The notes under the pieces were generated by a model. The model did not search any database. It was not told where the DNA came from and saw only the letters and a program-made list of their open reading frames with translations. Shown piece by piece: positions 31,594 through 48,417 of a stretch of 64,000 nucleotides of DNA (position 1 is the stretch's first letter; every line of letters begins with the position of its first letter). The translations under genes were made by a program, and so were the position numbers. The stretch spans positions 18,917-82,916 of the forward strand of contig QBZY01000001.1 in NCBI GenBank assembly GCA_003282155.1, given 5' to 3'. The stretch is from Pelagibacteraceae bacterium AG-337-I02 (GTDB lineage Bacteria; Pseudomonadota; Alphaproteobacteria; HIMB59; GCA-002718135).

Positions 31594-31611
31594 ATTACAG
31601 ATTTGTTACAG
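31594..31611 (-). promoter_or_regulatory. Pho-box-like direct repeat CTGTAAC-AAAT-CTGTAAT (read on the minus strand)
   Basis: Two 7-nt repeats with a 4-nt AT spacer, each 6/7 to E. coli CTGTCAT. Lies in the murJ / PiT-like divergent spacer. It is oriented toward murJ, not toward the P-related gene. Confidence 0.4.
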
Positions 31612-31680
31612 AAGTATTATTTTTTTTCAAATCAAAAAATTTTTATTCGAATCTAATTTTAAAAATATAATATTTAAAAA

Positions 31681-32640
31681 ATGGAATTAACCTTAATTTA
31701 CACAATAATAGGTTTTGGACTTGCAGCATATTCTGTTATTGCCAATGACTCTGTTCAAACTCTTGGAACATTTATAGCTTCAAACCAACGCTTTAAATGG
31801 TACTGGTTAGCTACTGCTGGCTCTGCTGTACTAGCATTTACACTTATATATGGATGGACCATTAACGACGGTGATATTACCTTTGGACGTTTAAATAAAA
31901 TTCCATATCAGACTATTCAGTGGTATCATGCTTGTGCTCCATTAATTTTAGTACTTCTTACAAGAGGTGGAATTCCAGTATCTACTACTTTCTTAGTTTT
32001 GTCTGCTTTTGCATCAACAGTTGTATTAGAAAAAGTTCTGATGAAGTCTGTAATTGGTTACGGATTAGCAGCAATGATAGCGTATATGGTTTGGATTGGT
32101 ATAAGTTATTTTATCAATGAAAAATTTGATAAAGTTCAAGATAAACACAGAAGACCATGGGTAATAGCTCAATGGTGTACAACTGGTTTTCTTTGGTACA
32201 CTTGGTTAAGTCATGATATTGCGAATATAGCTGTCTTCCTGCCTCGTGAACTTCCATTAAATTTATTAATAGCAATAATTACTTTATTAAGTGTTCTTTT
32301 ATTTTATATCTTTTGGGATAGAGGTGGACGTATTCAACGAGTTGTCTATTCAAAAACTGGAACACGTTATACTCGATCAGCTACTATAATAGATTTTGTT
32401 TATGCAGTCATTCTACTCTACTTTAAGCAATACAATGATATTCCAATGTCAACTACATGGGTCTTTGTTGGTTTATTATGTGGAAGAGAACTTGCAATAT
32501 CTACAATGAACAAAGATTACAAACTTCGTTATGTCTTTCCATTAATTGGAAAAGATTTTCTAAAAATGATTTTTGGATTAACAGTATCCGTTGGAATTGT
32601 TTTATCAATTCATTATGTTTTGATACCAAACGGTTTTTAA
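31681..32640 (+). CDS. Divergent PiT/PHO4-superfamily-like membrane protein
   Basis: 319 aa, polytopic. The two halves each carry degenerate PiT signatures: IANDSVQTLGTF / GIPVSTTFLVLSAF and LSHDIANIAVF / IPMSTTWVFVGLLCG. Compare GANDAANVFGTA / LPVSTTQAIVGAIVG in the canonical PiT at 36058. Confidence 0.5.
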   Translation: MELTLIYTIIGFGLAAYSVIANDSVQTLGTFIASNQRFKWYWLATAGSAVLAFTLIYGWTINDGDITFGRLNKIPYQTIQWYHACAPLILVLLTRGGIPVSTTFLVLSAFASTVVLEKVLMKSVIGYGLAAMIAYMVWIGISYFINEKFDKVQDKHRRPWVIAQWCTTGFLWYTWLSHDIANIAVFLPRELPLNLLIAIITLLSVLLFYIFWDRGGRIQRVVYSKTGTRYTRSATIIDFVYAVILLYFKQYNDIPMSTTWVFVGLLCGRELAISTMNKDYKLRYVFPLIGKDFLKMIFGLTVSVGIVLSIHYVLIPNGF

Positions 32641-33134
32641 AGTTTACCTTTTTTCTTTTTGAGTTCTTTTTTTAATTTAGGCCAATCATTATCACTTAAA
32701 ATATAGCCTACGCAATTTCGCGAACCACACTTACAAATGTGATCCACAAAATCTGTATCAAAAGGATAACCATAGTTATAAAAAAGCTCAGCTCCTTTTT
32801 TTATTCGTTTAATGGAAGAAATCCAAATTTCATTATCTATGATGTCTACCTCACAATTAGGATTACATGAGTGATTAATAAATTTTGCAAAATTATAATC
32901 AACATCACCGTCGATGTCGTATCGCTTGTTTAGTTCAAAAACATAGACCATGCCGTTATTTTTATCTTTTTTTGCTTTACGGATTTGTTTATCTGCTCTT
33001 TTGTCACCCTCTCTTTTAGTAACTTTATCACCAATATATTGGATTACTTTCTGGCCTTTTTTAATATTAGTTTTTGCAAATAATCCGGAGCCGTGAAGGG
33101 GCGATTTTTTTTTAAACCAAATTTTCTGCGTCAT
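32637..33134 (-). CDS. Minimal SET-domain protein (putative protein-lysine methyltransferase) with a post-SET Cys cluster
   Basis: 165 aa. Motifs HGSGLFA, INHSCNPNC and ELFYNYGY, plus a post-SET CKCGSRNC. Confidence 0.85.
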   Translation of the reverse strand: MTQKIWFKKKSPLHGSGLFAKTNIKKGQKVIQYIGDKVTKREGDKRADKQIRKAKKDKNNGMVYVFELNKRYDIDGDVDYNFAKFINHSCNPNCEVDIIDNEIWISSIKRIKKGAELFYNYGYPFDTDFVDHICKCGSRNCVGYILSDNDWPKLKKELKKKKGKL

Positions 33135-33220
33135 ACTGTTATTTTTTTACAATACACACATATAATAATAAATTGTATTATAAAATGATACTTTTATGTA
33201 TAAGAGCAATTCTTTAATTA

Positions 33221-34033
33221 ATGAAATTTGAAACAAATAAAAAATTTTACCGCACAATTTGGATTTCGGATACCCATCTAGGAACTAGTGGTTGTAAAAG
33301 CAAAATGCTTTTAGAATTCTTAGAGGAAACAGATTCAGAATATTTATTTTTAGTAGGCGACATTGTTGATGGATGGCGTATGCGTAAAAAAATGTATTGG
33401 CCTCAAGAACATAATGATGTGGTTCAAAAAGTTTTAAAGAAAGCGAAAAATGGAACTAAGGTAGTGCTTATCCCAGGAAATCATGATGAAGTATTAAAAG
33501 ATTTTACAAATTTTTCCTTTGGAGAAATTTCAATCAAAAACGAAGATACGCATCAATTAGCTGATGGAAGGAAAGTACTGATTACACACGGAGATGAGTT
33601 TGATGCCGTGATCATTAATGCGAGATGGTTAGCCAAAGTTGGATCAGCACTTTATGAATATTTACTAAAGTTAAATAATTTATTTAATTTTGTTCGAAGA
33701 AAGATGGGCTTGTCTTACTGGTCATTGTCTCAATATTTAAAAAAGAAAACAAAGCATGCAACGAACTTTATTAGTAATTTTGAGTTTGCTGTATCTGATA
33801 GAGCTAGAAGAGAAAATGCCGATGTTGTTGTGTGCGGGCATATACATAGACCTGAAATAAAGGAATTAAATGGTGTTCTCTATTGTAATGATGGTGACTG
33901 GATAGAAAGTTGCACAGCACTCGTTGAAGATGAAATTGGAAATTTATCTATTCTTAATTGGCCCGAAGAAAGAGAAAAATTAAAATTAATTTCTTTTGAA
34001 GAAAGACGAAAAATAAAAGAGGATGCAGCCTAA
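33221..34033 (+). CDS. plcP: LpxH-like metallophosphoesterase, PlcP-type phospholipase C for phosphate-starvation lipid remodelling
   Basis: Calcineurin-like motifs DTHLG, GDIVDGW, GNHDE, HGDEFD and GHIHRP. Overlaps a GT4 glycosyltransferase gene, the plcP-agt arrangement described for SAR11 and other marine heterotrophs. Confidence 0.75.
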   Translation: MKFETNKKFYRTIWISDTHLGTSGCKSKMLLEFLEETDSEYLFLVGDIVDGWRMRKKMYWPQEHNDVVQKVLKKAKNGTKVVLIPGNHDEVLKDFTNFSFGEISIKNEDTHQLADGRKVLITHGDEFDAVIINARWLAKVGSALYEYLLKLNNLFNFVRRKMGLSYWSLSQYLKKKTKHATNFISNFEFAVSDRARRENADVVVCGHIHRPEIKELNGVLYCNDGDWIESCTALVEDEIGNLSILNWPEEREKLKLISFEERRKIKEDAA

Positions 34034-35030
34034 AAAAATCGCATTAATTAGTGATGCGTGGGTTCCTCAGGTAAATGGCGTAGTTACGACATTTCAAAGT
34101 GTTATACCTCTCCTAGAAAAAAAAGGTTTTGAAATTAAAATATTACATCCTGAGATGTTTAATAATTTTAGTTATCCTTGGTACAAAGAAATTAAAATTT
34201 CTTTCAATACTAAAAAAGTTACGGAAAAATTTTTTAAAGAATTTAATCCAGATATTGTTCATATAATGACTGAAGGTCCAGTAGGTTTTGCTGGTCGTAA
34301 ATATTGTGTTAAAAATAAATTACGATACACTTCTTCTTTTCATACCCGTTTTCCTGATTATGTTAAACAGAGAGCTTATGTTCCTAAAAGTTTAACGTAT
34401 TCAATATTAAGAAGGCTGCATGATAATTCTGTAAATGTACTTGTTCCATCGCATTCCATGGTCGAAGAATTAGAGCGGTATAATTTCAGAAATTTAAAAG
34501 TATGGAATAGAGGAGTTGATACTGAATTATTCAGTCCAAATAAAAGAAATAGAAATGATAATGACATTCAACTGACATATGTTGGAAGAGTTGCTATTGA
34601 AAAAAATATTGAAGAATTTTTAAAACTAAAAGGAAATTATAATAAGACAGTTGTAGGTGATGGTCCTGAATTACAAAAATATATAAAAAAGTATCCTGAC
34701 GTAAATTTTGTTGGGTTGAAACGAGGTAATGAACTTGCAGAATATTATGCGAATGCTGATGTATTTGTTTTCCCATCTAAAACGGATACTTTAGGGAATG
34801 TAATACTTGAAGCTCTTGCTTGCGGAACACCAATTGCTGCATTTCCTGTTACTGGACCAAAAGATATTCTAAAAGATTCTAAAATAAATACACTTGATGA
34901 CAAACTAGCTAATTCAGTAGAAAAAGCTCTTAAAGTGAATAGAAATGATTGTCGTGAATTTGCTATGAAATTTACGTGGGAAGATTGCGCTAATGAATTT
35001 TTAGGTTCACAAATTGATTCTAAAAATTAG
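34023..35030 (+). CDS. agt: GT4 glycosyltransferase, Agt-type glycosyl-/glucuronosyl-diacylglycerol synthase
   Basis: 335 aa. GT-B fold with an E-x7-E region (EALACGTPIAAFPVTGPKD). 11-nt overlap with plcP. Confidence 0.7.
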   Translation: MQPKKIALISDAWVPQVNGVVTTFQSVIPLLEKKGFEIKILHPEMFNNFSYPWYKEIKISFNTKKVTEKFFKEFNPDIVHIMTEGPVGFAGRKYCVKNKLRYTSSFHTRFPDYVKQRAYVPKSLTYSILRRLHDNSVNVLVPSHSMVEELERYNFRNLKVWNRGVDTELFSPNKRNRNDNDIQLTYVGRVAIEKNIEEFLKLKGNYNKTVVGDGPELQKYIKKYPDVNFVGLKRGNELAEYYANADVFVFPSKTDTLGNVILEALACGTPIAAFPVTGPKDILKDSKINTLDDKLANSVEKALKVNRNDCREFAMKFTWEDCANEFLGSQIDSKN

Positions 35031-35038
35031 TAACTTTC

Positions 35039-35266
35039 TTAAACAAATAAATAAACGTAACCAAAAAGAAAAAGAGGTAATTGTAATCCAAAGTTCGTTA
35101 ATAACGCTTTATCTCTTGTCATATAACCAACCACTGACCAACCAACTGCACCTGTTCCATGTATAATAATATTATATGGATATGCATTTAAATTAGTCAG
35201 TAGTATTCCAGACAAAATTAAAAAGGTACTAAACCACTTAATTCTATTAATTGATATATCTGTCAT
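35039..35266 (-). CDS. Small hypothetical membrane protein (about 3 TM helices)
   Basis: 75 aa with three hydrophobic stretches and no recognisable motif. It is the only ORF filling the agt / DUF47 gap, so coding status is uncertain. Confidence 0.4.
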   Translation of the reverse strand: MTDISINRIKWFSTFLILSGILLTNLNAYPYNIIIHGTGAVGWSVVGYMTRDKALLTNFGLQLPLFLFGYVYLFV

Positions 35267-35331
35267 AAAACTCCTATTTTGTGAAAATTTTCATTAATAC
35301 ATGTAACCTAAAGATAAAGATATTAATCAAA

Positions 35332-35349
35332 TTGTAACGAATTTTTAAC
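35332..35349 (+). promoter_or_regulatory. Pho-box-like repeat TTGTAAC-GAAT-TTTTAAC
   Basis: 7+4+7 architecture in the forward orientation, about 40 nt upstream of the DUF47-PiT operon ATG. Confidence 0.4.
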
Positions 35350-35388
35350 ATTTCTTTATTTTTTTTTGAAAAGTTCTATAAGCACGCC

Positions 35389-36051
35389 ATGTTTGGACTA
35401 AAAAGTGCATCTTTATTTGGTGATACCAAAAAACTTGAGAGAGAAATTGATGAGTTTGTCGATATTGTATCTGAAGTAGGTTTGGTATTTAAATCGATAG
35501 TTCCAACTTATCTCAATCATTCCGCCAATGGTAAATTTGAGGAAATGGTTGAAAAAGTAAAAGACATGGAAAGTAAGGCCGACAAAATTACGAAAGATGT
35601 TGAGCATACTCTTTATGAAGAAACACTAATTCCAGATGCAAGAAGTGATGTGTTACGACTTCTAGAACATATCGACGAATTAATTGGAATGTACCAAGGT
35701 AATTGTTATCACTTCTCCATTCAAAAACCTAATTTTCCAAAAGAGTTTCATCAAGATTTAATTGAGTTAACAGAGACTGTTGTAAATTGTGTTGAATCAT
35801 TATGTTTAACCGTAAGATCATTTTTTAGAGATATTAAATCTGTTAGAGATAATGCACATAAAGTTACATTTTATGAAAAAGAATCTGATATAAAATTTAG
35901 TTCTCTTGCAAGAAGAATTTTTGATTCTGAATTACCTCTAGATCAAAAAATGCATCTTCGATATTTTGTAGAGAAGATTGATCGTATTTGTGATCAAGCA
36001 GAAGACATAGCTGACGAGGTTCAAATTTACGCTATTAAACGTTCCGTTTAA
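35389..36051 (+). CDS. DUF47 / PhoU-like Pit accessory protein
   Basis: 220 aa all-helical protein immediately upstream (6 nt) of a PiT transporter, the conserved DUF47-PiT pairing. Confidence 0.75.
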   Translation: MFGLKSASLFGDTKKLEREIDEFVDIVSEVGLVFKSIVPTYLNHSANGKFEEMVEKVKDMESKADKITKDVEHTLYEETLIPDARSDVLRLLEHIDELIGMYQGNCYHFSIQKPNFPKEFHQDLIELTETVVNCVESLCLTVRSFFRDIKSVRDNAHKVTFYEKESDIKFSSLARRIFDSELPLDQKMHLRYFVEKIDRICDQAEDIADEVQIYAIKRSV

Positions 36052-36057
36052 TTTTCA

Positions 36058-37110
36058 ATGGAAATTACAATTCTAATTTTTTTATTTGGTGGTCTTTTTT
36101 TAGGTTGGTCACTTGGCGCCAATGATGCTGCAAATGTTTTTGGAACTGCAGTTGGAACACGAATGGTTAGTTTCACAAGTGCAGCAATAATTTGTAGTGT
36201 CTTTGTTATTCTAGGTGCAATTATTAGCGGAGCAGGTACAACAGAAACTTTAGGTAAGTTAGGTGCTATTAATGCATTGCCTGGTGCTTTTGCAGCATGT
36301 GTTGCTGCAGGAATATCTGTTTATTTAATGACCAAAGTTGGCTTGCCTGTTTCAACAACGCAAGCGATTGTTGGAGCAATTGTTGGTTGGAATTTATACA
36401 CGGGATCTTCAACTAATCTTCAAGTTTTAATTACTATTTTAGGAACATGGATACTATGTCCTATCATTGCAGGAGTTATTGCAATGGGTTTGTTTACTTT
36501 TACAAAAAGAGTTATACTCAATAGAAAGTTACATATTCTCAGACTTGATGCTTATACAAGAACAGCTTTACTTTTAGCGGGTGCTTTCGGTGCTTATAGT
36601 TTAGGTGCAAACAATATTGCTAATGTAATGGGTGTCTTCGTACCTATATCACCGTTTACTGATGTTACTATTGGAAATTTATTTGTCTTTTCTTCCAAAG
36701 AACAATTATTTCTTCTCGGTGGTTTAGCAATAGCTGTTGGTGTTTTTACTTACTCGAAAAGAGTTATGTTTACCGTTGGTAATGATCTCTTAAAAATGAC
36801 ACCGGTGGCAGCATTTATTGTTGTTATATCGCATTCTATTGTTTTATTTTTATTTGCATCCCAGGGCATAAGTGCTTTCTTACAATCTATAAATCTTCCC
36901 TCTATACCTTTGGTGCCAGTATCAAGTTCCCAAGCTGTTGTTGGCGGCGTAATTGGAATTGGTCTTTTAAAAGGTGGAAAAGAGGTTCAATGGTCAATTG
37001 CAGGAAGAATTTCTTTGGGTTGGATGACACTACCTATAATTGCTGCTTTAATTTCTTTAATTGTTTTATTTATTCTAGAAAATATTTTTAATTTAACGGT
37101 CTCTTTTTAA
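36058..37110 (+). CDS. pit: PiT-family inorganic phosphate transporter
   Basis: 350 aa. GANDAANVFGTAVG and a second-half GANNIANVMG signature, plus LPVSTTQAIVGAIVGW. Confidence 0.9.
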   Translation: MEITILIFLFGGLFLGWSLGANDAANVFGTAVGTRMVSFTSAAIICSVFVILGAIISGAGTTETLGKLGAINALPGAFAACVAAGISVYLMTKVGLPVSTTQAIVGAIVGWNLYTGSSTNLQVLITILGTWILCPIIAGVIAMGLFTFTKRVILNRKLHILRLDAYTRTALLLAGAFGAYSLGANNIANVMGVFVPISPFTDVTIGNLFVFSSKEQLFLLGGLAIAVGVFTYSKRVMFTVGNDLLKMTPVAAFIVVISHSIVLFLFASQGISAFLQSINLPSIPLVPVSSSQAVVGGVIGIGLLKGGKEVQWSIAGRISLGWMTLPIIAALISLIVLFILENIFNLTVSF

Positions 37111-37631
37111 TTAACTGCTCGATAAGAAAAAATAAAATCTTCCTGGATTTTAGTTTCAATAGCCCCTTTTCTTCTTGATCGCACTAGATCAATAGCTTCT
37201 TGTTTTTCATAATTGAATTCAACAAGTAAAATAGCTGCAATCGTTCCAGCTCTTCCTTTTCCTCCACGGCAATGTAAAACTAAATTTTTTCCATCTATCA
37301 ATTCGTTCTTTAATAAAACTTTGGTTGTCTCCCATTTATATTTAAAATCTTTATCTGGTGCTCCCATGTCATAGATAGGTAAGTGGTACCAATGTAATTT
37401 ATGTTCATAAATACTTTTGACAAATAAAGTTTTATCACACAATTTTTCAAATTCACTATCTTCAACAAAGGAAGTGATTGAGCTACAATTATTGTTTTTA
37501 AAAAGATTAAGTTCTTCATTAAAAATTGAAACTTCAAAGGTTCCTTCTTTGTTAAGTCCTGGAAAAGAAGTTAATATTATTTTTCCTGAAAAAGATTTTG
37601 ATTCAATAAAATCGTAATTGCTAAATTGCAT
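37107..37631 (-). CDS. Cys-based (CX5R) dual-specificity/PTP-like phosphatase
   Basis: 174 aa with the P-loop VLHCRGGKGRAGT. Its ATG directly abuts the phnZ-like stop. Confidence 0.7.
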   Translation of the reverse strand: MQFSNYDFIESKSFSGKIILTSFPGLNKEGTFEVSIFNEELNLFKNNNCSSITSFVEDSEFEKLCDKTLFVKSIYEHKLHWYHLPIYDMGAPDKDFKYKWETTKVLLKNELIDGKNLVLHCRGGKGRAGTIAAILLVEFNYEKQEAIDLVRSRRKGAIETKIQEDFIFSYRAVN

Positions 37632-38201
37632 TTAAGACTGATTAGCTAAAAAAGACTTTCTTGCTTCTTCTAAATAAGGACGAAAATGCTCAACATCAGG
37701 TGTTTTTTTATCTAAAATTTTAGCTAAATCATCAAATCGTCTTAACTCTACAGCCTCATCCATTAACGGTTTGCTAATAAACTCATCTGCTTCATCTTTT
37801 GTGAAGGGGCCACCTTGGACTTTTAGAGAAAGTTTTGAAGCTTCGGATAAACTTTCGTAATACCCTTCTTCAACACTAGATAAATATCTTTTTGAATCAA
37901 CATGTGCCCTAATTGGTAAAATAACATCTTCGCCAAAATATTTTTTTAAGAAATCTGCACCTAAATTTTCATGATGACCATCTTTACCTTCATGAATAGG
38001 ATCGCCATCTTCGTAAATGAGATGTCCAACATCATGAAGTAAAGCTGCAGCAATTGTGGAGCCGGGTAATTTATTTTGTTCCGCTAATTCAGCACACTGA
38101 AGAGCATGTTCTAATTGTGTCACATCCTCATTGCCATACTGAATATCCGCACCTTTAGTTTTTAAAAGATCTAACAAATAATCTACGATATTTTCTTTCA
38201 T
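37632..38201 (-). CDS. phnZ: HD-domain phosphonate-degradation oxygenase, PhnZ/TmpB family
   Basis: 189 aa. Ligand pattern LEHALQ, LLHDVGH, HHENLGA and RAHVDSKRYL, plus the C-terminal LQGGPF...ELRRFDDLAK signature of phosphonate-operon HD proteins. Confidence 0.8.
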   Translation of the reverse strand: MKENIVDYLLDLLKTKGADIQYGNEDVTQLEHALQCAELAEQNKLPGSTIAAALLHDVGHLIYEDGDPIHEGKDGHHENLGADFLKKYFGEDVILPIRAHVDSKRYLSSVEEGYYESLSEASKLSLKVQGGPFTKDEADEFISKPLMDEAVELRRFDDLAKILDKKTPDVEHFRPYLEEARKSFLANQS

Positions 38202-38296
38202 TCTAATATTTAATTAACTTATTAGAGAATAATTTCAATTCCAAGTTTAATAGGATTGAACAATTTTATAATAATATCTATTAAGATAGAAATTAA

Positions 38297-39394
38297 ATGG
38301 ATAAAAAATTACTTACCCCAGGTCCTTTAACAACCTCTATGACTACAAAAGAAGCCATGCTTCATGACTGGGGTTCAAGAGATAAAAAATTTATTGATCT
38401 TAACTCATCTATAAGAGAGTCACTGGTAAAATTAATAGATGGTGAAGATAATTATCAATGTGTACCGATGCAAGGTAGTGGAACATTTGCCGTTGAGTCA
38501 ATGGTCAGCTCACTTACTTCTAAAGATTCTAAAATACTAATCCTTATTAATGGTGCGTATGGACAACGAATGAAAAAAATGTGCACTTACCTAAATAGAG
38601 ATTTTATAGAGTATGAAGTTGCTGAACATGAAGTTCACGAATTAAGTAAAATTGAAAAATTAATTGATACGAATGATTTAACTCATATTTTCGCCGTATA
38701 TTGTGAGACAACTTCAGGTATTTTAAATCCCATTGAAGAAATTGCAGATTTAGCAGAGTCAAAAAAAATCTCTTTATTTATAGATGCTATGAGTGCTTTT
38801 GGGGCTTTGCCTCTTAGCGCAAAAAAAGTAACCTTTGACGCCGTTGCTGCTTCTTCAAATAAATGTTTAGAGGGTGTTCCAGGCGTTGGTTTTATTTTAG
38901 TAAAAAATGATGTTATTCAAAATGCAGAAGGAAATAGTCATTCGTTAAGTCTTGATTTGTATGATCAATGGCAGGCAATGGAAAAAAATAAACAATGGCG
39001 ATTTACACCCCCTACCCATGTATTAGCGGCTTTTAATCAAGCTATAAAAGAACACGAAAAAGAAGGAGGGGTTCAAGGAAGACATGCACGATATAAAAAA
39101 AATTGTGAGATTATATGTGCTGGGATGAAAGAATTGGGTTTTGAACAACTACTTCCAGATAATTTACAAGCACCTATAATTATTACTTTTAAGCAGCCAA
39201 ATGATTCGAATTTTAATTTTGATAAATTTTATAATGCCTTGAGTGACAAAGATTTTTTAATTTATCCAGGTAAATTAACGGTAGCGGAAACCTTTAGAAT
39301 TGGTTGTATTGGTAATTTAAATGAAAATGATATGCATAATACTTTAGGAGCTGTTAAAGAAGTAATTCAAGAATTAGCACTCAAAATAAATTAA
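38297..39394 (+). CDS. phnW: 2-aminoethylphosphonate:pyruvate aminotransferase
   Basis: 365 aa. The LLTPGPLTTS N-terminus and PLP-lysine block ASSNKCLEGVPG are typical of PhnW. Confidence 0.87.
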   Translation: MDKKLLTPGPLTTSMTTKEAMLHDWGSRDKKFIDLNSSIRESLVKLIDGEDNYQCVPMQGSGTFAVESMVSSLTSKDSKILILINGAYGQRMKKMCTYLNRDFIEYEVAEHEVHELSKIEKLIDTNDLTHIFAVYCETTSGILNPIEEIADLAESKKISLFIDAMSAFGALPLSAKKVTFDAVAASSNKCLEGVPGVGFILVKNDVIQNAEGNSHSLSLDLYDQWQAMEKNKQWRFTPPTHVLAAFNQAIKEHEKEGGVQGRHARYKKNCEIICAGMKELGFEQLLPDNLQAPIIITFKQPNDSNFNFDKFYNALSDKDFLIYPGKLTVAETFRIGCIGNLNENDMHNTLGAVKEVIQELALKIN

Positions 39395-39398
39395 TTTA

Positions 39399-40031
39399 AT
39401 GACACAAGAAATAGAAATTCCATTAATTCAAGCGACCAATGAAAATCTTCAAGGATATGGTTATCTTATTGATTCATTTGAAAAAAGTGAAATAGAAATT
39501 GTTACATGGCCAAAACAAGGTTGGAGAGAAATTGAAGAGGGGACAGGAAATGAAGGCGGAACAACAGAAGGTTCTTTTGATACGTGGTGGCAAGGAGATA
39601 CTCTTTATGGACAAAATAATGCGGTAGAACATAAAAGTGATTACGAAATTGATGGGAAATATATTCTTGGATATTCCACTAATCCTGACAATGAATTACA
39701 GAAACAAAACTACACTCATCCAGATAAAATTTATTTATGGCATGCCAACTATCATCCAGATGGTGGTCAACTTTTTTTTCCTAAAGAAAACAAGCCTTTT
39801 ATCTGTCCATTAGCATTACCAACTGATGATATAAAATTAGAAAATTTTAAAGCATTTTACTGTGATGGTTCTAAGGGTCTTTATATCCATCCAAACATAT
39901 GGCACGAAGGTGTTTTCCCAGTCTCTGAAAAGCAATCTTTTGACGGAAAACAAGGAAAAGTTCATGCAAGAGTAAGCATTGATTTAAAAGAAGAGTTTAA
40001 TAAATATATCTATTTTAAAACTCAAATTTAA
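39399..40031 (+). CDS. AllA (ureidoglycolate lyase)-family cupin protein of unknown function
   Basis: IPLIQATNENLQGYGYLI, YHPDGGQLFFP and YIHPNIWHEGVFP align with the AllA N-terminal, ERHPxxxQxFxP and HxxxWH blocks. About 50 aa longer than AllA. 4 nt after phnW. Confidence 0.6.
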   Translation: MTQEIEIPLIQATNENLQGYGYLIDSFEKSEIEIVTWPKQGWREIEEGTGNEGGTTEGSFDTWWQGDTLYGQNNAVEHKSDYEIDGKYILGYSTNPDNELQKQNYTHPDKIYLWHANYHPDGGQLFFPKENKPFICPLALPTDDIKLENFKAFYCDGSKGLYIHPNIWHEGVFPVSEKQSFDGKQGKVHARVSIDLKEEFNKYIYFKTQI

Positions 40032-40053
40032 TTAGTACTTATTAATTTAAACT

Positions 40054-40848
40054 ATGAAAATTATTCATTTATCTGATCCACATATTTATACTGATAAAAT
40101 ACATAGTATCGATCCAGTAGATAGATTTAAAAAAGCATTAGATCATATTATAATAAATCATAGCGATGCTGACCTTTTTGCAATTACAGGAGATATTACT
40201 GATCTAGGAGATAAAGAATCATATCAATTATTTATAGAGATAATTAAAGAAAAAAAATTACCTCAAAAATTAAAACCTCAACTTATTATTGGTAACCATG
40301 ACAACCGAGAGGAATTTAAAATTAACTTCCCTTCAGTGGAAACAGATAACAATGGTTTTGTTCAATATTTTATCGACAGAGAGGATAAGAGATTTATTTT
40401 TATCGATACAAATTTAATCAATACACATGCAGGTCATTATTGTGAGGATAGACAAGAATGGTTCACAAAAATATTAAATGAAACATCCAAAAATAAAAAT
40501 ATTTATGTTTTTATGCATCATAATCCTCTTGCTTTGGTAAAGGATGAAAGTGATGGGATAGGGTTAAAACAAAAAGAAGAGTTTAAAAAAATTATATTTA
40601 GTAATAAAGAAAAAATTAAGCATATTTTCTTTGGCCATCAACATATTACAAGTTCTGGTTCATATGGTGGTATTACTTTTTCGTCTCCAAGAAGTACTTG
40701 GTCTCCTCTGATACCTAACTTTTCAAATGAATATCGTTTAGGAACAGCTAACACAGATACAAATTATAATGTTGCAATAATTCGATCAGATGCTTTAGTT
40801 ATTCATACAGAAGATTTTTTAAAAACAGAAGTTAATTGGTTTAAATAA
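40054..40848 (+). CDS. Calcineurin-like metallophosphoesterase (GpdQ/CpdA-type phosphodiesterase)
   Basis: Motifs LSDPH, GDITDLGD, GNHDN, MHHNP and GHQH. 264 aa. Confidence 0.75.
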   Translation: MKIIHLSDPHIYTDKIHSIDPVDRFKKALDHIIINHSDADLFAITGDITDLGDKESYQLFIEIIKEKKLPQKLKPQLIIGNHDNREEFKINFPSVETDNNGFVQYFIDREDKRFIFIDTNLINTHAGHYCEDRQEWFTKILNETSKNKNIYVFMHHNPLALVKDESDGIGLKQKEEFKKIIFSNKEKIKHIFFGHQHITSSGSYGGITFSSPRSTWSPLIPNFSNEYRLGTANTDTNYNVAIIRSDALVIHTEDFLKTEVNWFK

Positions 40849-40851
40849 AAA

Positions 40852-41958
40852 TTATTTTTTTTCGATGACAAATATTTCATTGTTAAAATAAAGACCTTTA
40901 TTTTTAGCAACAATTTTTTGAACTACTTTTTCGTAATTTTTTGTTTTTTCTACCTTCATAACTTTATCATCATCCATTTGATTAACATATATGGAAGCAT
41001 TCCAAGCAGAAAAAATTAAGGATGTCGCTATACCTCCACTGATTTCTGTTGGTAGAGCTCTCAGTTTGCATTTAATAATTCTTTTTTCTCCAAAAGATAA
41101 AGTGCTTAATAAATCTTTATCTAAATTTTTCTTAAGATAAGAAATGATACTATTTCCAAGAGAAGGAAATGGGTCTTCTTTTGGCCAAATTTTACGAATT
41201 ATTTCATTAGCAGGATCTTTTCCTGAAGCATGAATAGTTAATAATTTCCCTTTTGATTTAAGCGCTCTAATCATTGGTTCAATGACATATTTTGATTTCT
41301 TTTCTGCTGAAATTCTTGAACGATAAGGCTGTGAAGCAATAATAAGATCAAATTTATTATCTGATTTTTTTTTGGTAGGGATTAATTCATTAACATTAAA
41401 TTCTTGATCTTCGCGGTAGATAACCATGACTGAAGGCTCTTTATAAGTATGATTACCTGACTTTTTATTAATTTCTATATTCCATTTTTTTTCTAAAAAT
41501 TCATTTTGTTTTCTTAATTGTTGGGCAAATTCAAGAGAGGTCTCACCTTTTAATTTAATAATATTCCAATTAATTTTTTTCTGTTTAACTTCATTTTTTG
41601 ATTTTAGATTTGCGGCTTCCGCGTAGTGTAAATTTGAAATGACAAAAACAGTATTCTTATGCTCAACGAACCTATCGGGTAATTTTTCTAAACCTAATCT
41701 TACATCTTCTATGCTTATTTCTTTTGTGCAAACTAATAGAGGTACGTTAGGCCTAGCCTCGTGGCACTGACGCATTACATTCATAAGTAAAGAACCATCC
41801 CCCATACCAGCATCAAATATTTTTAAACCAGGTTTTTGAGGTTTAATTTTATTTACATGAGGACGTATCGCATCGGCAATTTGATTTTTTTCATTTGTTG
41901 TAGTTACAAATAATAAATATTTTTGTCTGTTATCATAAAACCTGAAATTTTTTTTCAT
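40852..41958 (-). CDS. Methyltransferase-like protein with a large insertion (unassigned family)
   Basis: 368 aa. SAM motif-I-like IFDAGMGDGS (aa ~47-56). FDLIIASQPY (aa ~203-212) resembles the (D/N/S)PPY motif IV of amino-group methyltransferases but lies about 145 aa away rather than the usual ~60-70. Confidence 0.4.
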   Translation of the reverse strand: MKKNFRFYDNRQKYLLFVTTTNEKNQIADAIRPHVNKIKPQKPGLKIFDAGMGDGSLLMNVMRQCHEARPNVPLLVCTKEISIEDVRLGLEKLPDRFVEHKNTVFVISNLHYAEAANLKSKNEVKQKKINWNIIKLKGETSLEFAQQLRKQNEFLEKKWNIEINKKSGNHTYKEPSVMVIYREDQEFNVNELIPTKKKSDNKFDLIIASQPYRSRISAEKKSKYVIEPMIRALKSKGKLLTIHASGKDPANEIIRKIWPKEDPFPSLGNSIISYLKKNLDKDLLSTLSFGEKRIIKCKLRALPTEISGGIATSLIFSAWNASIYVNQMDDDKVMKVEKTKNYEKVVQKIVAKNKGLYFNNEIFVIEKK

Positions 41959-41960
41959 TA

Positions 41961-43073
41961 CTAATAAAGTCCCATTGATTTAGCAGAAGAGATGAAGGCT
42001 TCTTTATTGCCAATAAAGTTTTTACCTCGTTCCCCTAAAAACGCATCATCTACTATATTATTCCATTCTTGAACAGGAACTTTTATTTCATTTAAGTTAA
42101 GAGGAACCTCTAAAGAACGCATAAATTCACTCAGATGATTTGCGGCATTCTCTAGGTTATCGTTAAAAATTAATTTTAGTCTTTCTTCAGCTACACTATC
42201 AATTCCAACCATACTTTTAGTAATCATCGGTAAAGTAAATGAACAAGCAATACCATGCTGAATACCGTAATTGAGTGTCACAGGGTATGATAGATTGTGC
42301 GCAATAGCAGTTTTCGTATTGGAAAACGCTAAGCCAGCATGAACGCACGCCAATGCAATGTTTGAGCGTAATACAACATTTCTTAAATCTTTAGTGAGAA
42401 GTGGTAAATTTTCTAATACTAATTTTGATGCTTGTATTGCATGAGAGGCAGAAATTGGGTTCGCATTAATATTCCAAATACTTTCCATCGAATGGGAGAG
42501 AGCATCTAAACCAGTTGAAATGGTTAAGCCTAAAGGCTTATCAACCATAATAGATGGATCGATAATTGCTTTTTCTGCATAAAGAGATTTATGAGCCAAA
42601 GATAATTTATTGTTTTTTTCTTTATCCCAAATTGTGGCCCAACACGTAAGCTCACTCGATGTTCCTGAAGTTGTAGGTATTGCAATCATCTTGATTGGAT
42701 TTTCGACTCTTGGACTTTTCTTATTGCGAACGAAATCTGTTAGATATTCTTGTTTATCTTTAAATGCAGCAATTGCTTTAGCTGTGTCTGTAACAGAGCC
42801 ACCACCTATAGCTAAAATATAATCTACCGATTCATTCATTGAAGAAAATTTTTTTTGTAGCTCTAAAATATCCTTATAATCTGGATTAGGCTGAACATCC
42901 GTCATAATGGATAAGGGTGGATTTGAAGAAGATTTTAATTCATCGCTATATTTTTTAAAAATTTCTTCTGGATGAGTGATAATGATATAGTTCTTATTTT
43001 TAAGTGCATCATGTACTTCTTTAAATCTATTTTCTCCAAAGATAATTTCAACAGGGTTAAAATAGTTCCACAT
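41961..43073 (-). CDS. Iron-containing alcohol dehydrogenase, possibly phosphonoacetaldehyde reductase / 2-hydroxyethylphosphonate dehydrogenase-like
   Basis: 370 aa. GGGSVTDTAKAIA nucleotide motif and His-rich metal site (DALSHSMES, AIAHNLSYP, HGIACS). The family call is firm; the substrate is inferred from context. Confidence 0.75.
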   Translation of the reverse strand: MWNYFNPVEIIFGENRFKEVHDALKNKNYIIITHPEEIFKKYSDELKSSSNPPLSIMTDVQPNPDYKDILELQKKFSSMNESVDYILAIGGGSVTDTAKAIAAFKDKQEYLTDFVRNKKSPRVENPIKMIAIPTTSGTSSELTCWATIWDKEKNNKLSLAHKSLYAEKAIIDPSIMVDKPLGLTISTGLDALSHSMESIWNINANPISASHAIQASKLVLENLPLLTKDLRNVVLRSNIALACVHAGLAFSNTKTAIAHNLSYPVTLNYGIQHGIACSFTLPMITKSMVGIDSVAEERLKLIFNDNLENAANHLSEFMRSLEVPLNLNEIKVPVQEWNNIVDDAFLGERGKNFIGNKEAFISSAKSMGLY

Positions 43074-43077
43074 TACA

Positions 43078-44157
43078 TTAAATTGATTTTGCCGCTTTAG
43101 TTAAAATTGTCATTTTCTCAATTGCTTGTTCTCGCGTAAAGAAACCTAAACCACAATCTGGTGCAGCTATTAAACGGTGTTCATCAATATGTTCAAGTGA
43201 ATCTTTGATACGAACTCTTACTTCTTCAACAGTCTCCATTCTACTTTTTGCAATATCAATAAATCCAAAAATTACTTTTGTTTTAGTAAATTTTTCTAAA
43301 AGATTTAAATCATTATGCCTATGTGAATCTTCTAAAGATACTTCATCAATAGTTGAATCATCTACAAGTGAGGCAATTCTATCATAAGCATCTAGATCAG
43401 CCTTTTTATACCCTTCTGAATCTAATGAGTTAGGATAACCGCAACAAATATGGCAAACGCGTTGCACTTCTTTAGGTATACCATGCATCATTCTTTCTAA
43501 ATTTTCCATACCGTAAGAATGAGCTTCATCGGGCTTTCTAGCGAATACTGGTTCATCAATTTGAATATACTGACAGCCTGCATCTACAAGTGCTTTAACT
43601 TCTTTATTAAGTGCTAATGCTAAATCAAAACCAAGTTTTTTCATGTCATCATAGTAATTGTTGGCAATTGAATCTGTAATTGTCATTGGTCCAGGTAGCG
43701 TAATTTTAACTGGGTTTTTTGTAAATTGTTGTGCACTCTTCCAGTCTAAATGCATGCGTATTTCTTTACTTGAAATTGGTGCAACAATAGTTGGAAGATC
43801 AGCTTCAAACGCACCTTGTCTTACTGACTTATGTGTAACTTCTTTAAAACTCACTCCATTTAAAAAACGACATTGATATAATACGTAACTCTCACGTCTA
43901 ACTTCTCCATCTGTTGGAACATCAATTCCTGCATTTACTTGATCAGTTATAACTTCTTTAATTGCTGCTAAAAATAATTTTTCAGCATCCGCACCCGCAG
44001 ACTCTAACGCTTTTTCATATGCCCCAGGTGACCAATTTGATAATAACCCTTTTGAAGCTTTTCTCTCTTCTTCTGATTTTGTCCCTAAAAACCAATCTTG
44101 AATCGGCGTGTGTTTTGGTTTTGGATATGCACCTATAGTAGTAGTTGTAAGAGGCAT
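43078..44157 (-). CDS. MetE-like (cobalamin-independent methionine synthase catalytic-domain family) Zn-dependent alkyl/methyl transferase
   Basis: 359 aa single barrel. Zn ligand blocks CHICCGYP (HxC), VSLEDSH (E) and APDCGLGF (C). AGGAG Shine-Dalgarno 8 nt upstream. Confidence 0.72.
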   Translation of the reverse strand: MPLTTTTIGAYPKPKHTPIQDWFLGTKSEEERKASKGLLSNWSPGAYEKALESAGADAEKLFLAAIKEVITDQVNAGIDVPTDGEVRRESYVLYQCRFLNGVSFKEVTHKSVRQGAFEADLPTIVAPISSKEIRMHLDWKSAQQFTKNPVKITLPGPMTITDSIANNYYDDMKKLGFDLALALNKEVKALVDAGCQYIQIDEPVFARKPDEAHSYGMENLERMMHGIPKEVQRVCHICCGYPNSLDSEGYKKADLDAYDRIASLVDDSTIDEVSLEDSHRHNDLNLLEKFTKTKVIFGFIDIAKSRMETVEEVRVRIKDSLEHIDEHRLIAAPDCGLGFFTREQAIEKMTILTKAAKSI

Positions 44158-44187
44158 GACTTATTCTCCTGAATATCTTAAAATAAA

Positions 44188-44212
44188 ACAGCGGCTTTTA
44201 TAAAGCCGCTGT
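44188..44212 (-). terminator. Intra-operon intrinsic terminator / mRNA-stabilising hairpin after the binding-protein gene
   Basis: The minus strand reads ACAGCGGCTTT-ATA-AAAGCCGCTGT (11-bp perfect stem) followed by TTTATTTT. Starts 27 nt after the SBP stop. Confidence 0.65.
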
Positions 44213-44239
44213 AGTAAAAAGTTAACAATAAAGTAATCT

Positions 44240-45493
44240 CTATAAAAGATCCTCTATTTCTTCCATCATCTCTTCTTGAAGATCAGCCATATTATCTGCA
44301 CTACCTGTAGCAATTTCTTCAGTGTAATCATAGATTACCTGAGTTATTGCTAGACCGTTTTCACCAGGATATGCAAACCAATCAGCCAATAAAGGTAATT
44401 GATTTACAGCAGTTAGTTTGTTTGGATTTTTAGTATAAAAATCACCTAACAAATCATTGGCTGCTTTATTTGGTGGAACATATCCAGTAGTTTCAGCAAC
44501 TAAAGCTGCACCAATACCAGAAGTGATAAACTTTAAGAAAGTCCATGCAGCATCTACTCTTGCTGGATCATCAGATGTAGAAACTAACATCGCAGCATTT
44601 CCACCCGCTGGAAGTCTTGCTGGAGTTCCTCCGTTTACACCTGGCATTCCTGGAAATGGTGCTGTTTTAAGTTCAAAATCTGCTTTGGCTGCATTCACTG
44701 AACCTAAGCTTGATGTTGACCAGAAAAACATACCAATAGTGCCTGCATTAAATGCAGCTTGACCATCAGCAATTGAATAGTTTGGCATATTACAACCACT
44801 CATTATGTCATGCATTTGTTGTAAAGTTGCTAGACCAGCATCTCCACCCATATTAACAGCTCCATCTTTTACCATTGGAACATTTTGAGTGTGCATTAAA
44901 GCTTGGTGAAACCAGTTACCTGTAATATTCCAGCCAAAATATAAAGTTCCTTTTCCAGCTGCTGCTAATTTATTACAAGCTGCGATAACTTCGTCCCAGT
45001 TGGTTGGGATGCTATCTATACCTGCTTCAGCTAATAGATCCATGTTATAGTATCCAACAGGTGTTGATACAGAAAATGGTAACCCATATACATCACCACC
45101 AAAGGTAGATAAACTTAACATAGCAGAGTGATAACCATCTTTTTCAAAATCAGCTTCTCCTGCAATAAAAGGCTCTAATGATTTTGCAATCCCTTTATCA
45201 ACAAGTGGTGCTTGTCTGTTAAGACCTTGCATTGTTACATCTGGTAAATTACCTGAAGTAGACTCTCTGAAGATTGTTGCAGTTGCATCCTCATAGTTTT
45301 CATAAGTTGCTCTAAATTTAACTTGAATATCTGGATGTGCTTTTTCAAACTCTGGCATAATAGCTTGAAACGTAACGTCAAATAATCCAGAATAAGGATA
45401 AGCTACTTCTATTTCAATAGACTTAGCTGAATTAACAGAACCATAAAAACCAAAAGCTAGTACGGCTGCCAATCCTGTAATTAATTTTTTCAT
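44240..45493 (-). CDS. ABC transporter periplasmic substrate-binding protein, family 1 (UgpB/sugar type), probable organophosphonate/organophosphate binder
   Basis: 417 aa with a signal peptide (AAVLAFGFYGSVNSA). GGGAGGA Shine-Dalgarno. Sits between phnY and the unassigned trio. Confidence 0.82.
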   Translation of the reverse strand: MKKLITGLAAVLAFGFYGSVNSAKSIEIEVAYPYSGLFDVTFQAIMPEFEKAHPDIQVKFRATYENYEDATATIFRESTSGNLPDVTMQGLNRQAPLVDKGIAKSLEPFIAGEADFEKDGYHSAMLSLSTFGGDVYGLPFSVSTPVGYYNMDLLAEAGIDSIPTNWDEVIAACNKLAAAGKGTLYFGWNITGNWFHQALMHTQNVPMVKDGAVNMGGDAGLATLQQMHDIMSGCNMPNYSIADGQAAFNAGTIGMFFWSTSSLGSVNAAKADFELKTAPFPGMPGVNGGTPARLPAGGNAAMLVSTSDDPARVDAAWTFLKFITSGIGAALVAETTGYVPPNKAANDLLGDFYTKNPNKLTAVNQLPLLADWFAYPGENGLAITQVIYDYTEEIATGSADNMADLQEEMMEEIEDLL

Positions 45494-45545
45494 TTAATCC
45501 TCCCGATTGAATATAATAATTTAATCTAACATGTAGCTCCGAAGG

Positions 45546-45574
45546 GTTACAATTTTATTACGAAAATATTACTA
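45546..45574 (-). promoter_or_regulatory. Triple Pho-box-like repeat TAGTAAT-ATTT-TCGTAAT-AAAA-TTGTAAC
   Basis: Three 7-nt repeats in exact 11-bp phase, forward orientation, about 50 nt upstream of the SBP ATG. Confidence 0.5.
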
Positions 45575-45629
45575 AAAAATAAGCTTATTTTTCCACAGGA
45601 ATAAAAAAATTAGAGAAAAACTGGTTATT

Positions 45630-47072
45630 TTACCAAGGTAGCGAAAAGGTTTTTACATTAGTAAAACTTTTCATTGCTTCAATAACACCCTCTTTGTAAC
45701 CAAGACCTGAGTCTTTAATTCCTCCAAAAGGAGACATTTCAATTCTGTAGCCTGGAACCTCCCAAATATTTACCGTACCAACATTTAAACCTTGAATATA
45801 TTTTTTTGCTCGCATGAAGTTGTTTGTACATACTCCAGATGATAATCCGAATGCGGTTGAATTAGATATTTTCATTACAGCTTCATCGTCATTAGGCACA
45901 CGAATAATTGGGATAACTGGACCAAATGTTTCTTCTAAAACTAATTCACTTTTAGGATCAACATGATCTATAACTATTGGGGGTAACAAAGCGCCCTTTC
46001 TTCCAGGGTGATATAAAATTTTTGCACCATCTTCTTCAGCCATAGAAACTCTTTTATCAAAAAGTTCTGCAGCTTGAGCATTAACAACAGTACCTAAGTC
46101 TGTTTCCATATTCATAGGATCACCAAATTTAATTTTCTTAGCACGCTCAAGAGCCATCTCAACAAATTGATCTGCAATAGATTCTTGAACCAGTATTCTT
46201 TTAACAGCTGTACAACGTTGGCCAGAGTTTTTCGTTGCGCCAGTAACAGCTAGCTCAACAGCTTTTTTAAGATCATCACCATCTAAGTCATTTAAAACAA
46301 TTAATGGATCATTACCACCAAGCTCTAGAACTGTTCTTTTGTATCCAGCTTGTTCAGCAATTAATTTTCCTACACCTACACTGCCTGTAAAAGTAATGAG
46401 ATCAATATTTGGATTCTTAATCATTTCAGATCCAATATCTTGAGGCCATCCAGTTACAACTGAAAACATTTCTGGTGGTAAACCTGCTTCATATAAAACA
46501 TCAGCGAGTACCATTGCTGTTAAAGGTGTTAATTCTGTTTGTTTACATACAGTACAATTATTTGTTGCAATTGAAGGCGCAATTTTATGCGCTACCATAT
46601 TTAAAGGATGATTAAATGGAGTGATTGCTGAGATTGCTGTTAAAGGTTCTCTTATGGTAAATATTTTTCTCGCTTTTCCATGCGGGGTTAAATCACAAGA
46701 AAATATTTCACCATCATCATGAATACAAAGTTGTGCCGTTAACGAAAATACATCAAAAGCTCTTCCTACTTCGTATAAAGAATCTTGTTTTGAGATACCA
46801 AGCTCTAAAGTAATAATATCAGAAATTTCATCTTTTCTTTTAACAAGTACTTCTGCAGCAGTTTGAAGAATTTTTTGTCTCTCATATCTTGTAAGCTTAG
46901 GTTGGTAATTTGCAGCAATATCTAAAGCCTTTCTTGCATGCTCTGCAGTACCGGCTGGGACCGTTCCGATTACTTCACCTGTAAATGGGTACTCAACATT
47001 TATTGTTTTATCTGAAGTAACTTTTTCTCCAGCTATACGCATTGCTTCATTAATCATTTTTTTGTGCATCAT
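45630..47072 (-). CDS. phnY: Phosphonoacetaldehyde dehydrogenase (aldehyde dehydrogenase family)
   Basis: 480 aa ALDH with catalytic blocks ELGGNDP and [13 protein letters not shown] overlap with phnA upstream, the phnA-phnY pairing of the Sinorhizobium-type pathway. Confidence 0.78.
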
Positions 47073-48310
47073 AGGGCTCCATTAATTGCATAATAAAATG
47101 CATCATAGTTATATAATTGTTTGCTAGTATCTAAGTTTTGTAATTTTACATTTGATATGAATGGCACTTCTCTTTCATGGAGTCCACCATGAGAACGTAA
47201 AGGTTCATTTAATCCAGAAAGATTGTGTTTATCTTCAGATGAACCAATAGTCATAAATTCTGAAGACATACATATAATATCCCCCATTCTATCTGGAGGT
47301 AAATTATAAGTAGAGCATCCTTCGTCTTTTGTTAAAACAACTTCTATATCTTTTATTTCTTTAATAGTATTTACAACTGAATCTACCTTGCTCTTGTCTT
47401 CTAAATAAATTGTTGCAAAAGAACCAAGTGAACCATGATGAACGACATATGGATCTGTAATTGGTAGTATGACTTTAGCCATGTTTGGTTCAAATTTTTT
47501 ATCTAAATAATCTTGTAAAAATATTGCATTAGGTGAACCGTCTTCTTTTGATTTTGGTTTCATACCGTGATCTGCTGTAATGATTATAGAAACATTCTCC
47601 TTATTTAAAAGACCAATGTATTTATCAAACATTGCATAAAATTTATTTGCTGTTTCATTTCCCGGTGCATATTTGTGTTGAATATAATCCGTAGTCGATA
47701 AATACATAATATTTGGTTTAAACTCTTCAAGAAGTTTTACACCTGCAGCCATTACAAATTCAGAGAGTCCTTCAGAATATACTTCTGGCACTGGCATCCC
47801 CAACCAATTGTTTACATTATCTATACCATTGAGATCTTTTGTTGCTTGATCAGATTTTTCAGCAGAAAAACAAATAGCTCTCTCATTATCAAAACTTAAT
47901 CCGTTTCCTAAAAGTGTTCTCAACTTGTCTTTTGCAGTAACAAGCGCAATTTTTGAACCGGAATTGTAAAATTTTTCAAAAATAGTTGGTGCTCGCATAT
48001 ATTTTGGGTCATTCATCATTACTTCTTCACCAGTCTCAGGTGTATAAAAGAAGTTTCCGCATATACCGTGAACAGAACTTGGTTGGCCTGTTACAATGGA
48101 AATGTTATTTGGATTTGTAAAACTTGGAATAGCGCTGTGAACAAGTAGGTTTTCACCACTTGCAATTAATTTATCAAGATTTGGTGTAAGGTTAGATTTT
48201 GATGCTTCGTCGAGATACTCTTTTTGACTACCATCAAGGCATATAACAATAGCAGTTTTTGAGAAAGAGCTTGGATATTCTCTTTTATTAATTTCTAAAT
48301 TACCGGACAC
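47069..48310 (-). CDS. phnA: Phosphonoacetate hydrolase (alkaline-phosphatase superfamily)
   Basis: 413 aa. Metal/nucleophile blocks [15 protein letters not shown] and ITADHGM are characteristic of PhnA / nucleotide-pyrophosphatase-type enzymes. Confidence 0.83.
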
Positions 48311-48399
48311 GACTTCAACTGATATATATCATTAAAAATAAGAATTTATAGTTATCTGCTAGTTAAACTCAATCATAATTTGAATATTTGTTAATAAAA

Positions 48400-48417
48400 T
48401 TGAAATAAAACTGAAAT
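48400..48417 (+). promoter_or_regulatory. Pho-box-like repeat TTGAAAT-AAAA-CTGAAAT
   Basis: 7+4+7 architecture in the forward orientation, about 70 nt upstream of the ABC ATPase GTG. A further TTG lies one turn (12 nt) upstream. Confidence 0.4.

Follow-up and report, generated by a model that had tools for sequence, protein, structure and literature searches.

We analysed a 64-kb stretch of the genome of Pelagibacteraceae bacterium AG-337-I02 (contig QBZY01000001.1, positions 18,917 to 82,916; hereafter the window), which has 30% G+C, starts near dnaA and carries a phosphorus island. SAR11 bacteria dominate phosphorus-depleted surface oceans, and their Pho regulon has so far been unpredictable. 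Several operons of the island are preceded by 7-nt direct repeats in 11-bp phase, which a first-pass annotation had taken for the PhoB operator of the lineage. Our analysis indicates that four of the seven repeat sites are very probably the SAR11 Pho box (the PhoB operator), with three arrays as candidate live operators and a fourth site as the orphaned promoter box of phoR-phoB. The genes, identified with Pfam and NCBIfam, and the sites of the island are listed here in window coordinates.

29951-31498, minus strand: murJ.
31549-31593, minus strand: phoB remnant, last 14 codons and stop (IRTFRSASYSLGHN), abutting the next site.
31594-31611, minus strand: predicted orphan Pho box CTGTAAC-AAAT-CTGTAAT, top dimer of the window (21.7-22.8 bits).
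31681-32640, plus strand: memX, a 319-aa membrane protein without family assignment.
35321-35349, plus strand: predicted Pho-box array TATTAAT-CAAA-TTGTAAC-GAAT-TTTTAAC, 39 nt before duf47-pit.
35377-35382, plus strand: TATAAG, invariant, a candidate -10 hexamer 6 nt before the duf47 ATG, in the column-invariant block AAAAGTTCTATAAGC.
35389-37110, plus strand: duf47 (PhoU_div)-pit.
45493-40852, minus strand: operon of a UgpB-like binding protein (SBP), a MetE-like protein, an iron-dependent alcohol dehydrogenase (Fe-ADH) and a methyltransferase-like protein.
45546-45574, minus strand: predicted Pho-box array TAGTAAT-ATTT-TCGTAAT-AAAA-TTGTAAC, 52 nt before the SBP gene.
48310-45630, minus strand: phnA-phnY.
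48389-48417, plus strand: weaker, probable Pho-box array TGTTAAT-AAAA-TTGAAAT-AAAA-CTGAAAT, 72 nt before the ABC ATPase operon.
From 48490, plus strand: ABC ATPase (abcA), two permeases and phn_DUF6.
Further island members: a SET-domain gene, plcP-agt and DUF6552; a dual-specificity (DSP) phosphatase and a phnZ-like HD oxygenase; phnW, a ureidoglycolate-lyase-like gene and a SpdA-like gene.

All seven repeat strings reported by the first-pass annotation, comprising these four main sites and three weaker look-alikes before phnZ, plcP and phnA, were found exactly at the positions and on the strands it gave. It had also warned that such words might match by chance in so AT-rich a genome. With up to three mismatches allowed, TGTAAC-N5-TGTAAC gave 62 matches in the window against 71 expected from shuffles, and YTGTAAY-N4-YTGTAAY gave 138 against 130. 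With at most one mismatch there were four matches against 1.0 expected, three of the four in island spacers. The latter count is circular, since the consensus had been drawn from these very sites, and we therefore sought an independent training set. A half-site matrix was trained solely on promoters of pstS, pstC, phoB and phoR, taken from related SAR11 genomes and from metagenome contigs and absent from the window. An asymmetric 18-mer matrix scored the duf47 site too low because the strong heptamer there is the upstream one; symmetric half-site and trimer models were more robust, trimers being included because several real sites have three repeats.

Among the roughly 128,000 positions of the window, the five best trimers were exactly the four main sites: the SBP array at 18.6 bits, the duf47 array at 17.2 and 15.5, the 31594 site at 16.1 and the abcA array at 10.7, with the best coding match at 7.2 bits. 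Enrichment over a shuffled or third-order Markov background, which the first-pass annotation had suggested testing, was lacking at three mismatches and present in the trimers, five of which reached at least 10 bits against 1.0 in third-order Markov simulations. Scored as dimers, the main sites ranked 1 (31594), 2 (35332), 4 (45546) and 6 (48400) in the window, and the look-alikes 17 (38221), 152 (33136) and 206 (48351). Three of the 21 upstream spacers of the window scored 15.6-21.7 as dimers; the abcA spacer reached 7.5 as a dimer and 10.7 as a trimer, where the best trimer of any other spacer was -3.0. Same-strand intergenic pairs of half-sites occurred three times at a period of 11 and never at periods 7-10 or 12-15. 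The dimer at rank 3 lies inside an EamA-family transporter gene (58181-58198, minus strand, TTGTAAT-ATTT-TTGAAAC) and scores 12.7-15.8 bits, level with real sites; about 0.3 such matches per window are expected by chance.

That all of these sites are chance matches of the TGTAA and TGAAA words that are common at 30% G+C would fit the counts at three mismatches, which equal the shuffled expectation, and the one equally good dimer inside a gene. For 38221, 33136 and 48351 we accept this explanation; as an account of all the sites it is extremely improbable. The four main sites took top ranks under an independently trained model, occurred at the sole period of 11, were conserved across diverged spacers and carry the motif that also precedes pstS and phoB. 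For them, chance is refuted by the trimer scoring and the orthologous conservation. The warning of chance matches was therefore justified for the three-mismatch counts and the three weak sites, which lie at background, but not for the four main sites, which are real and exceed what chance would give.

In relatives, canonical Pho genes have these phased heptamers in front of them. A scan with PhnW retrieved 80 syntenic SAR11 loci from single-cell and metagenome-assembled genomes (1.56 Mb in total), some of which contain canonical Pho genes missing from the window. Of these, PhoB (TIGR02154, 322 bits, cut-off 296) and PstC were identified by NCBIfam, and the matches to the PstS family (135 bits, cut-off 207) and to PhoR (294 bits, cut-off 334) lay below cut-off. 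In these related loci the heptamers stand on the coding strand before pstS, pstC, phoB and phoR.

pstS, locus L011: ATGTAAT-AAAA-CTGTAAT.
pstS, locus L063: CTTTAAT-ATTT-CTGTAAC.
pstS, locus L073: CTTTAAT-ATTT-CTGTAAT.
pstC, locus L073: TTGTAAT-ATAA-CTGTAAC.
phoB, locus L002: TTGTAAT-TATA-TTGTAAC.
phoR, locus L002: CTGTAAC-AAAT-CTGTAAC(-ATAA-GTGTAAT).
pstS, metagenome examples: CTTTAAT-AATT-TTGTAAC; CGTTAAT-ATTT-TTGTAAC; TCTTAAT-ATAA-TTGTAAT.

The metagenome examples come from a scan with PstS, which added about nine distinct SAR11 pstS promoters to the three variants from single amplified genomes (SAGs); in these pstS promoters the best coding-strand dimer always lay 41-47 nt before the ATG. 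From the 22 canonical half-sites we obtained the consensus yT(G/T)TAAy, in which T2, T4, A5 and A6 are near-invariant. A TAnnnn hexamer begins exactly 10 nt past the box in 14 of the 14 canonical SAR11 sites. The DNA-binding domain of SAR11 PhoB aligns to the E. coli PhoB structures 1GXP and 1QQI (E = 6e-29), and its recognition helix is nearly unchanged (VEPRTVDVHVRRLRKVL in SAR11, VEDRTVDVHIRRLRKAL in E. coli). With the same heptamers at pstS, pstC, phoB and phoR and a conserved PhoB helix, the proposal that the repeats are the PhoB-type operator of this lineage was supported.

The E. coli Pho box is reportedly CTGTCATA(A/T)A(T/A)CTGTCA(C/T), its consensus and architecture being credited to Makino and colleagues and to Blanco and colleagues. 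The SAR11 element shares its 7-bp direct repeats with A/T-rich 4-bp spacers in 11-bp phase, its placement on the coding strand, at the canonical sites with the end about 10 bp upstream of the -10, where it would replace the -35, the stacking of boxes at strong promoters, the apparent autoregulation of phoB and phoR and the near-identical recognition helix (1GXP). Its heptamer matches CTGTCAT, the E. coli consensus, at six of seven positions, the difference being A for C at position 5 (TGTAA versus TGTCA). Unlike in the E. coli box, position 3 of the SAR11 upstream heptamer is often T (CTTTAAT), arrays of three repeats are common, and at least phoR, possibly also duf47, looks leaderless. The cyanobacterial Pho box (PhoB/SphR) is said to consist of tandem PyTTAAPyPy(T/A) repeats in 11-bp phase, as described by Su and colleagues in 2007. 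It likewise has phased TTAA-core direct repeats, often three of them, in AT-rich picoplankton genomes, and upstream SAR11 heptamers such as CTTTAAT and CGTTAAT resemble its unit. The cyanobacterial unit, however, spans 8 bp and is followed by a 3-bp linker, the two regulators are not detailed orthologues, and the promoter-proximal SAR11 heptamer keeps the proteobacterial TGT. The Pho box of Sinorhizobium meliloti and other alphaproteobacteria (the matrix of Yuan et al., 2006, as used in PMC4796936) comes from the same class of bacteria, with the same direct-repeat logic and the same kinds of target (pst, phoB, and in other species plcP). An E. coli/S. meliloti matrix did not work on SAR11, for which AT content was blamed (PMC4796936 supplement); a matrix specific to the lineage, like ours, is required for SAR11 sites. 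As a kind of element the Pho box is well known, and its SAR11-specific definition appears to be new, the only related literature statement we found being that in PMC4796936.

The three candidate live arrays were followed through orthologous spacers. At duf47, a dimer of at least 10 bits is kept in 91% of 35 distinct spacers, and in 33 of the 35 the box stands 39 nt from the ATG. The nine most distant of these sequences share 0.44 identity with the window upstream of the box, against 0.94 over the first heptamer, 0.53 over the 4-nt spacer and 0.68 over the second heptamer. That second heptamer improves to ATGTAAC in distant lineages; in deep lineages the conservation of the spacer begins at the box. 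The invariant TATAAG so close to the ATG suggests the -10 of a leaderless duf47 transcript, with the strong box further upstream. At the SBP gene, a dimer of at least 10 bits is likewise kept in 91% of 35 distinct spacers, and the distant L074 spacer holds three phased repeats in other letters (TTGAAAT-AATA-CTTTAAT-ATTT-ATGTAAC). A TACATG at 45530-45535 begins exactly 10 nt downstream of this box and a TAGATT at 45523-45528 lies 17-18 nt downstream of its last repeat, so that the geometry is ambiguous: it fits if TACATG is the -10, but with TAGATT as the -10 the last repeat would take the -35 position. At abcA, 83% of 24 distinct spacers retain a trimer of at least 8 bits; in L074 the aligned position reads CTGTAAC-ATTT-ATTTAAT, and in the window a perfect TATAAT (48427-48432) lies 9 nt past the array. 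In terms of leaders, duf47 (35377-35391) and phoR (L002:2186-2226 and L119:4880-4920, with TAnnnn 7 nt before the ATG) look leaderless and have no Shine-Dalgarno sequence, and one is present at pstS (AGAGGA) and at the SBP gene (GGGAGGA). The phoR geometry is thus box-10-TAnnnn-7-ATG.

In E. coli terms, the 11-bp-phased 7-bp direct repeats with A/T-rich 4-bp spacers have the layout of a Pho box, and a coding-strand box about 10 bp before the -10 is seen at all 14 canonical sites and, at 9 nt, at abcA; the SBP array is ambiguous and the duf47 distance is 27 nt. By homology with E. coli PhoB, phosphorylated PhoB (PhoB~P) would oligomerise head-to-tail along one face of the helix by binding these two or three units, which follow one another head-to-tail every 11 bp on the regulated gene's coding strand. 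Bound PhoB would stand in for the missing -35 and recruit RNA polymerase to the -10 hexamer some 10 bp downstream. The candidate live operators in the window would be those of duf47-pit, the SBP operon and the cognate ABC ATPase/permease operon. PhoB binding, activation under phosphorus limitation and the promoter positions are what we infer from motif, phase, orientation, conservation, presence at canonical Pho genes and the PhoB helix, all of which were observed, as was the phoR-phoB deletion described below.

If instead TTGTAA and TTGAAA were -35-like words of constitutive sigma-70 promoters and the phased copies UP-like, then the resemblance to a Pho box would be incidental or historical and PhoB would play no part. 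The two words do match TTGACA at 4-5 of 6 positions, the last SBP repeat has normal -35/-10 spacing from TAGATT, the phoRB operon is deleted in the window, and only 55% of offshore SAR11 genomes have pstSCAB-phoU, phoB and phoR (PMC12636525). At pstS, pstC, phoB, phoR and abcA, however, the box lies 9-10 nt from the -10 rather than 17, it is the heptamers of the upstream copies that are conserved, with variable 4-nt spacers, and a sigma-70 scan found fewer sites in the island than in shuffles (62 versus 83). That generic sigma-70 and terminator scan of the island gave no usable promoter calls. The orphan box, moreover, decays where the other three do not, and this difference suggests a site-specific constraint. 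Constitutive promoters are, in our estimate, improbable as the explanation of the repeats.

The best-scoring dimer of the window, at 31594, had been noted in the first-pass annotation as an oddity because it points toward murJ rather than the PiT-like gene, here called memX. Its orientation is real, and is explained by a phoR-phoB operon that formerly lay between box and murJ: the site points away from memX because it was the promoter box of phoR-phoB, deleted here. The same box stands 12-23 nt before phoR in L002, L110-L117, L119-L122 and L124-L125, and in L002 the box and the murJ leader are separated by a complete phoR-phoB operon. The order memX, box, phoR-phoB, (znu/zur) murJ, with memX diverging from the box, recurs in three PhoB identity groups (100%, 90% and 82%), polar metagenomes included. 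Even where the rest of the spacer is unalignable the box is kept, as TTGAAAC-AAAA-CTGTAAC-ATAA-ATGTAAT, 12 nt before the phoR ATG. In a blastn comparison of the window with L002 both flanks align, and between them lie 1738 nt (phoR and phoB) in L002 and 0 in the window. A deletion of about 1.7 kb removed phoR-phoB and fused the box to the last 14 phoB codons, whose translation IRTFRSASYSLGHN compares with the PhoB C-terminus IRTVRSAGYSFGHN of L002. Other SAGs show intermediate states, with about 240 nt including a phoB C-terminal remnant (L008, L058) or with 18-40 nt (L001, L060).

The original phoR -10 (TATTTG in L002) has gone with the deletion. Among 18 distinct memX-bearing spacers, the 31594-type box is decayed or absent in eight, of which seven lack phoRB and one was not classified, and the duf47 and SBP boxes in those same genomes are not decayed. 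Given the phoRB deletion, the decay of this box and the intact duf47 and SBP boxes, we therefore read the 31594 site as a relic of the phoRB autoregulatory promoter rather than as a control element of murJ or memX, and it has probably lost its function. This deletion series offers a sequence-level view of how the Pho two-component system is lost in offshore SAR11. As for memX itself, it gave only a sub-threshold PHO4 match (E = 0.009, 15 bits); its sequence contains the PiT-like motifs NDxxQ and P(V/M)STT, and its place next to phoR-phoB is conserved across SAR11 lineages. It may be a divergent PiT-family transporter.

Several observations weigh against the reading of the repeats as Pho boxes that are still in use. 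The matrix rests on 11 sites (22 half-sites). The conservation check in related genomes that the first-pass annotation had called for came out in favour of the duf47, SBP and abcA sites, which are kept in 83-91% of distinct spacers, but these spacers are phylogenetically related and the percentages are not independent counts. The 27 nt between the duf47 box and TATAAG break the 10-nt rule, the SBP hexamer at +10 (TACATG/TACGTG) is poor at its last position, and the abcA half-sites have A at the otherwise invariant T of position 4, with a dimer score of 7.5 that is near background. Finally, the lineage encodes a PhoB with the DNA-reading helix, yet no phoB, phoR or pst gene was found in the 64-kb window and the canonical phoRB locus is deleted there, so that the regulator may be absent from this genome.

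Two further explanations bear on this last point. The arrays could be operators of another winged-helix (OmpR-family) regulator, or of a second PhoB paralogue, in genomes without the memX-linked phoRB. Two PhoR types, only about 51% identical, do occupy the same SET-adjacent position in different genomes, and the boxes stay conserved in many SAGs in which the local phoRB is deleted. Neither the window nor any of the loci showed another response regulator, however, and the motif precedes canonical Pho genes including phoB itself; we consider this explanation highly improbable. The second explanation is that this genome, like many tropical SAR11, has lost its sole PhoR-PhoB together with Pst and yet maintains, under selection, the arrays before duf47-pit and a Ugp-like transporter operon, which would be read by another factor or have turned into PhoB-independent promoters. 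We hold this to be unlikely; if true, SAR11, the most abundant heterotroph of the ocean, would offer a natural example of a regulon that has survived its regulator. Beside the SET-domain gene, two gene sets alternate, phoR-pstS-pstC-pstA (L011:1-4840; also L022, L030 and L051) and memX-phoR-phoB (L002:420-3258), and it is these two sets that carry the two PhoR types. Neither set is intact in 13 of the 18 tropical SAGs in which the SET-adjacent region is visible.

Under the preferred reading, that of PhoB operators, the lineage-specific box yields a testable regulon map with Pst, PhoRB, DUF47-PiT, a Ugp-like ABC system and an operon of uncharacterised enzymes as PhoB targets. The further suggestion that the island forms one regulon did not survive, as the motif is found on only 3-4 of about 10 transcription units. 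The units phnA-phnY, phnZ, phnW and the window's plcP-agt are without a Pho box. That the 2-aminoethylphosphonate (2-AEP) genes phnW, phnY, phnA and phnZ lack boxes fits the phosphate-insensitive mineralisation and catabolism of 2-AEP in marine bacteria (PMC8316502). A second plcP type, 70% identical to that of the window, is preceded by AGTTAAT-GTAA-TTGAAAT-AAAA-TTTTAAC (L007:5195-5272 and about 30 similar loci), an array that ends exactly 10 nt before TATTAT and is plausibly a Pho box; the window's own plcP promoter has no such array.

The SBP operon (40852-45493, minus strand) lies under the strongest of the candidate live boxes. Its MetE-like member is a Meth_synt_2 protein, its alcohol dehydrogenase is iron-dependent and its pathway has no assignment. 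A strong terminator hairpin (44188-44212) directly follows the binding-protein gene, and the ATPase and permeases that match the binding protein are encoded apart from it, past phnA-phnY. An identification of the binding protein as AepX was rejected: AepX belongs to pfam13343, and the window protein to SBP_bac_1/8. A trimer match at 44209-44237 overlaps the terminator hairpin and was treated as chance, as was CTGTATC-TTAA-CTTTAAT "upstream of phnA", which overlaps the abcA ribosome-binding site. The GDPD (ugpQ-like) spacer at 11964-12033 contains no site (-1.8 bits).

The three weaker look-alikes score like control spacers and are unconserved, and were set down to chance. None of the orthologous phnZ, phnW, window-type plcP and phnA spacers retains a site where the first-pass annotation had placed one. 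The plcP look-alike (33136-33153, plus strand) scores 0.4 bits, overlaps the SET-domain start codon and is unconserved in other plcP groups. The phnA look-alike (48351-48368, minus strand) scores -0.1 bits and lies inside the spacer of a sigma-70-like promoter, TTGAGT-16-TATAAA, 0 nt from its -10. The phnZ look-alike (38221-38238, minus strand) reaches 6.3 bits as a dimer against 6.0 for the non-phosphorus control spacer of msrP, and 0 of 32 distinct orthologous spacers reach threshold; its TTGAAA is more simply a -35-like word, and the site falls between the arms of a conserved inverted repeat.

This inverted repeat occupies the divergent phnZ/phnW spacer (38214-38250) and reads TTAACTTAT...AAGTTTAA in the window and TTAACTTAT-N-ATAAGTTAA in the L063-L076 group (L063:6183-6233). 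It looks like an operator for some dimeric regulator distinct from PhoB; the island shows no gene for such a regulator. One other high-scoring candidate, CTTTAAC-AATT-GTTTAAC at L007:6140-6165 and in L007-type loci, before an acyltransferase gene, proved to be a perfect 16-bp palindrome, TTTAACAATTGTTAAA, and not a Pho box. The palindrome lies 31 nt before the 280-aa acyltransferase gene, upstream of plcP'-agt', and may be the site of another regulator.

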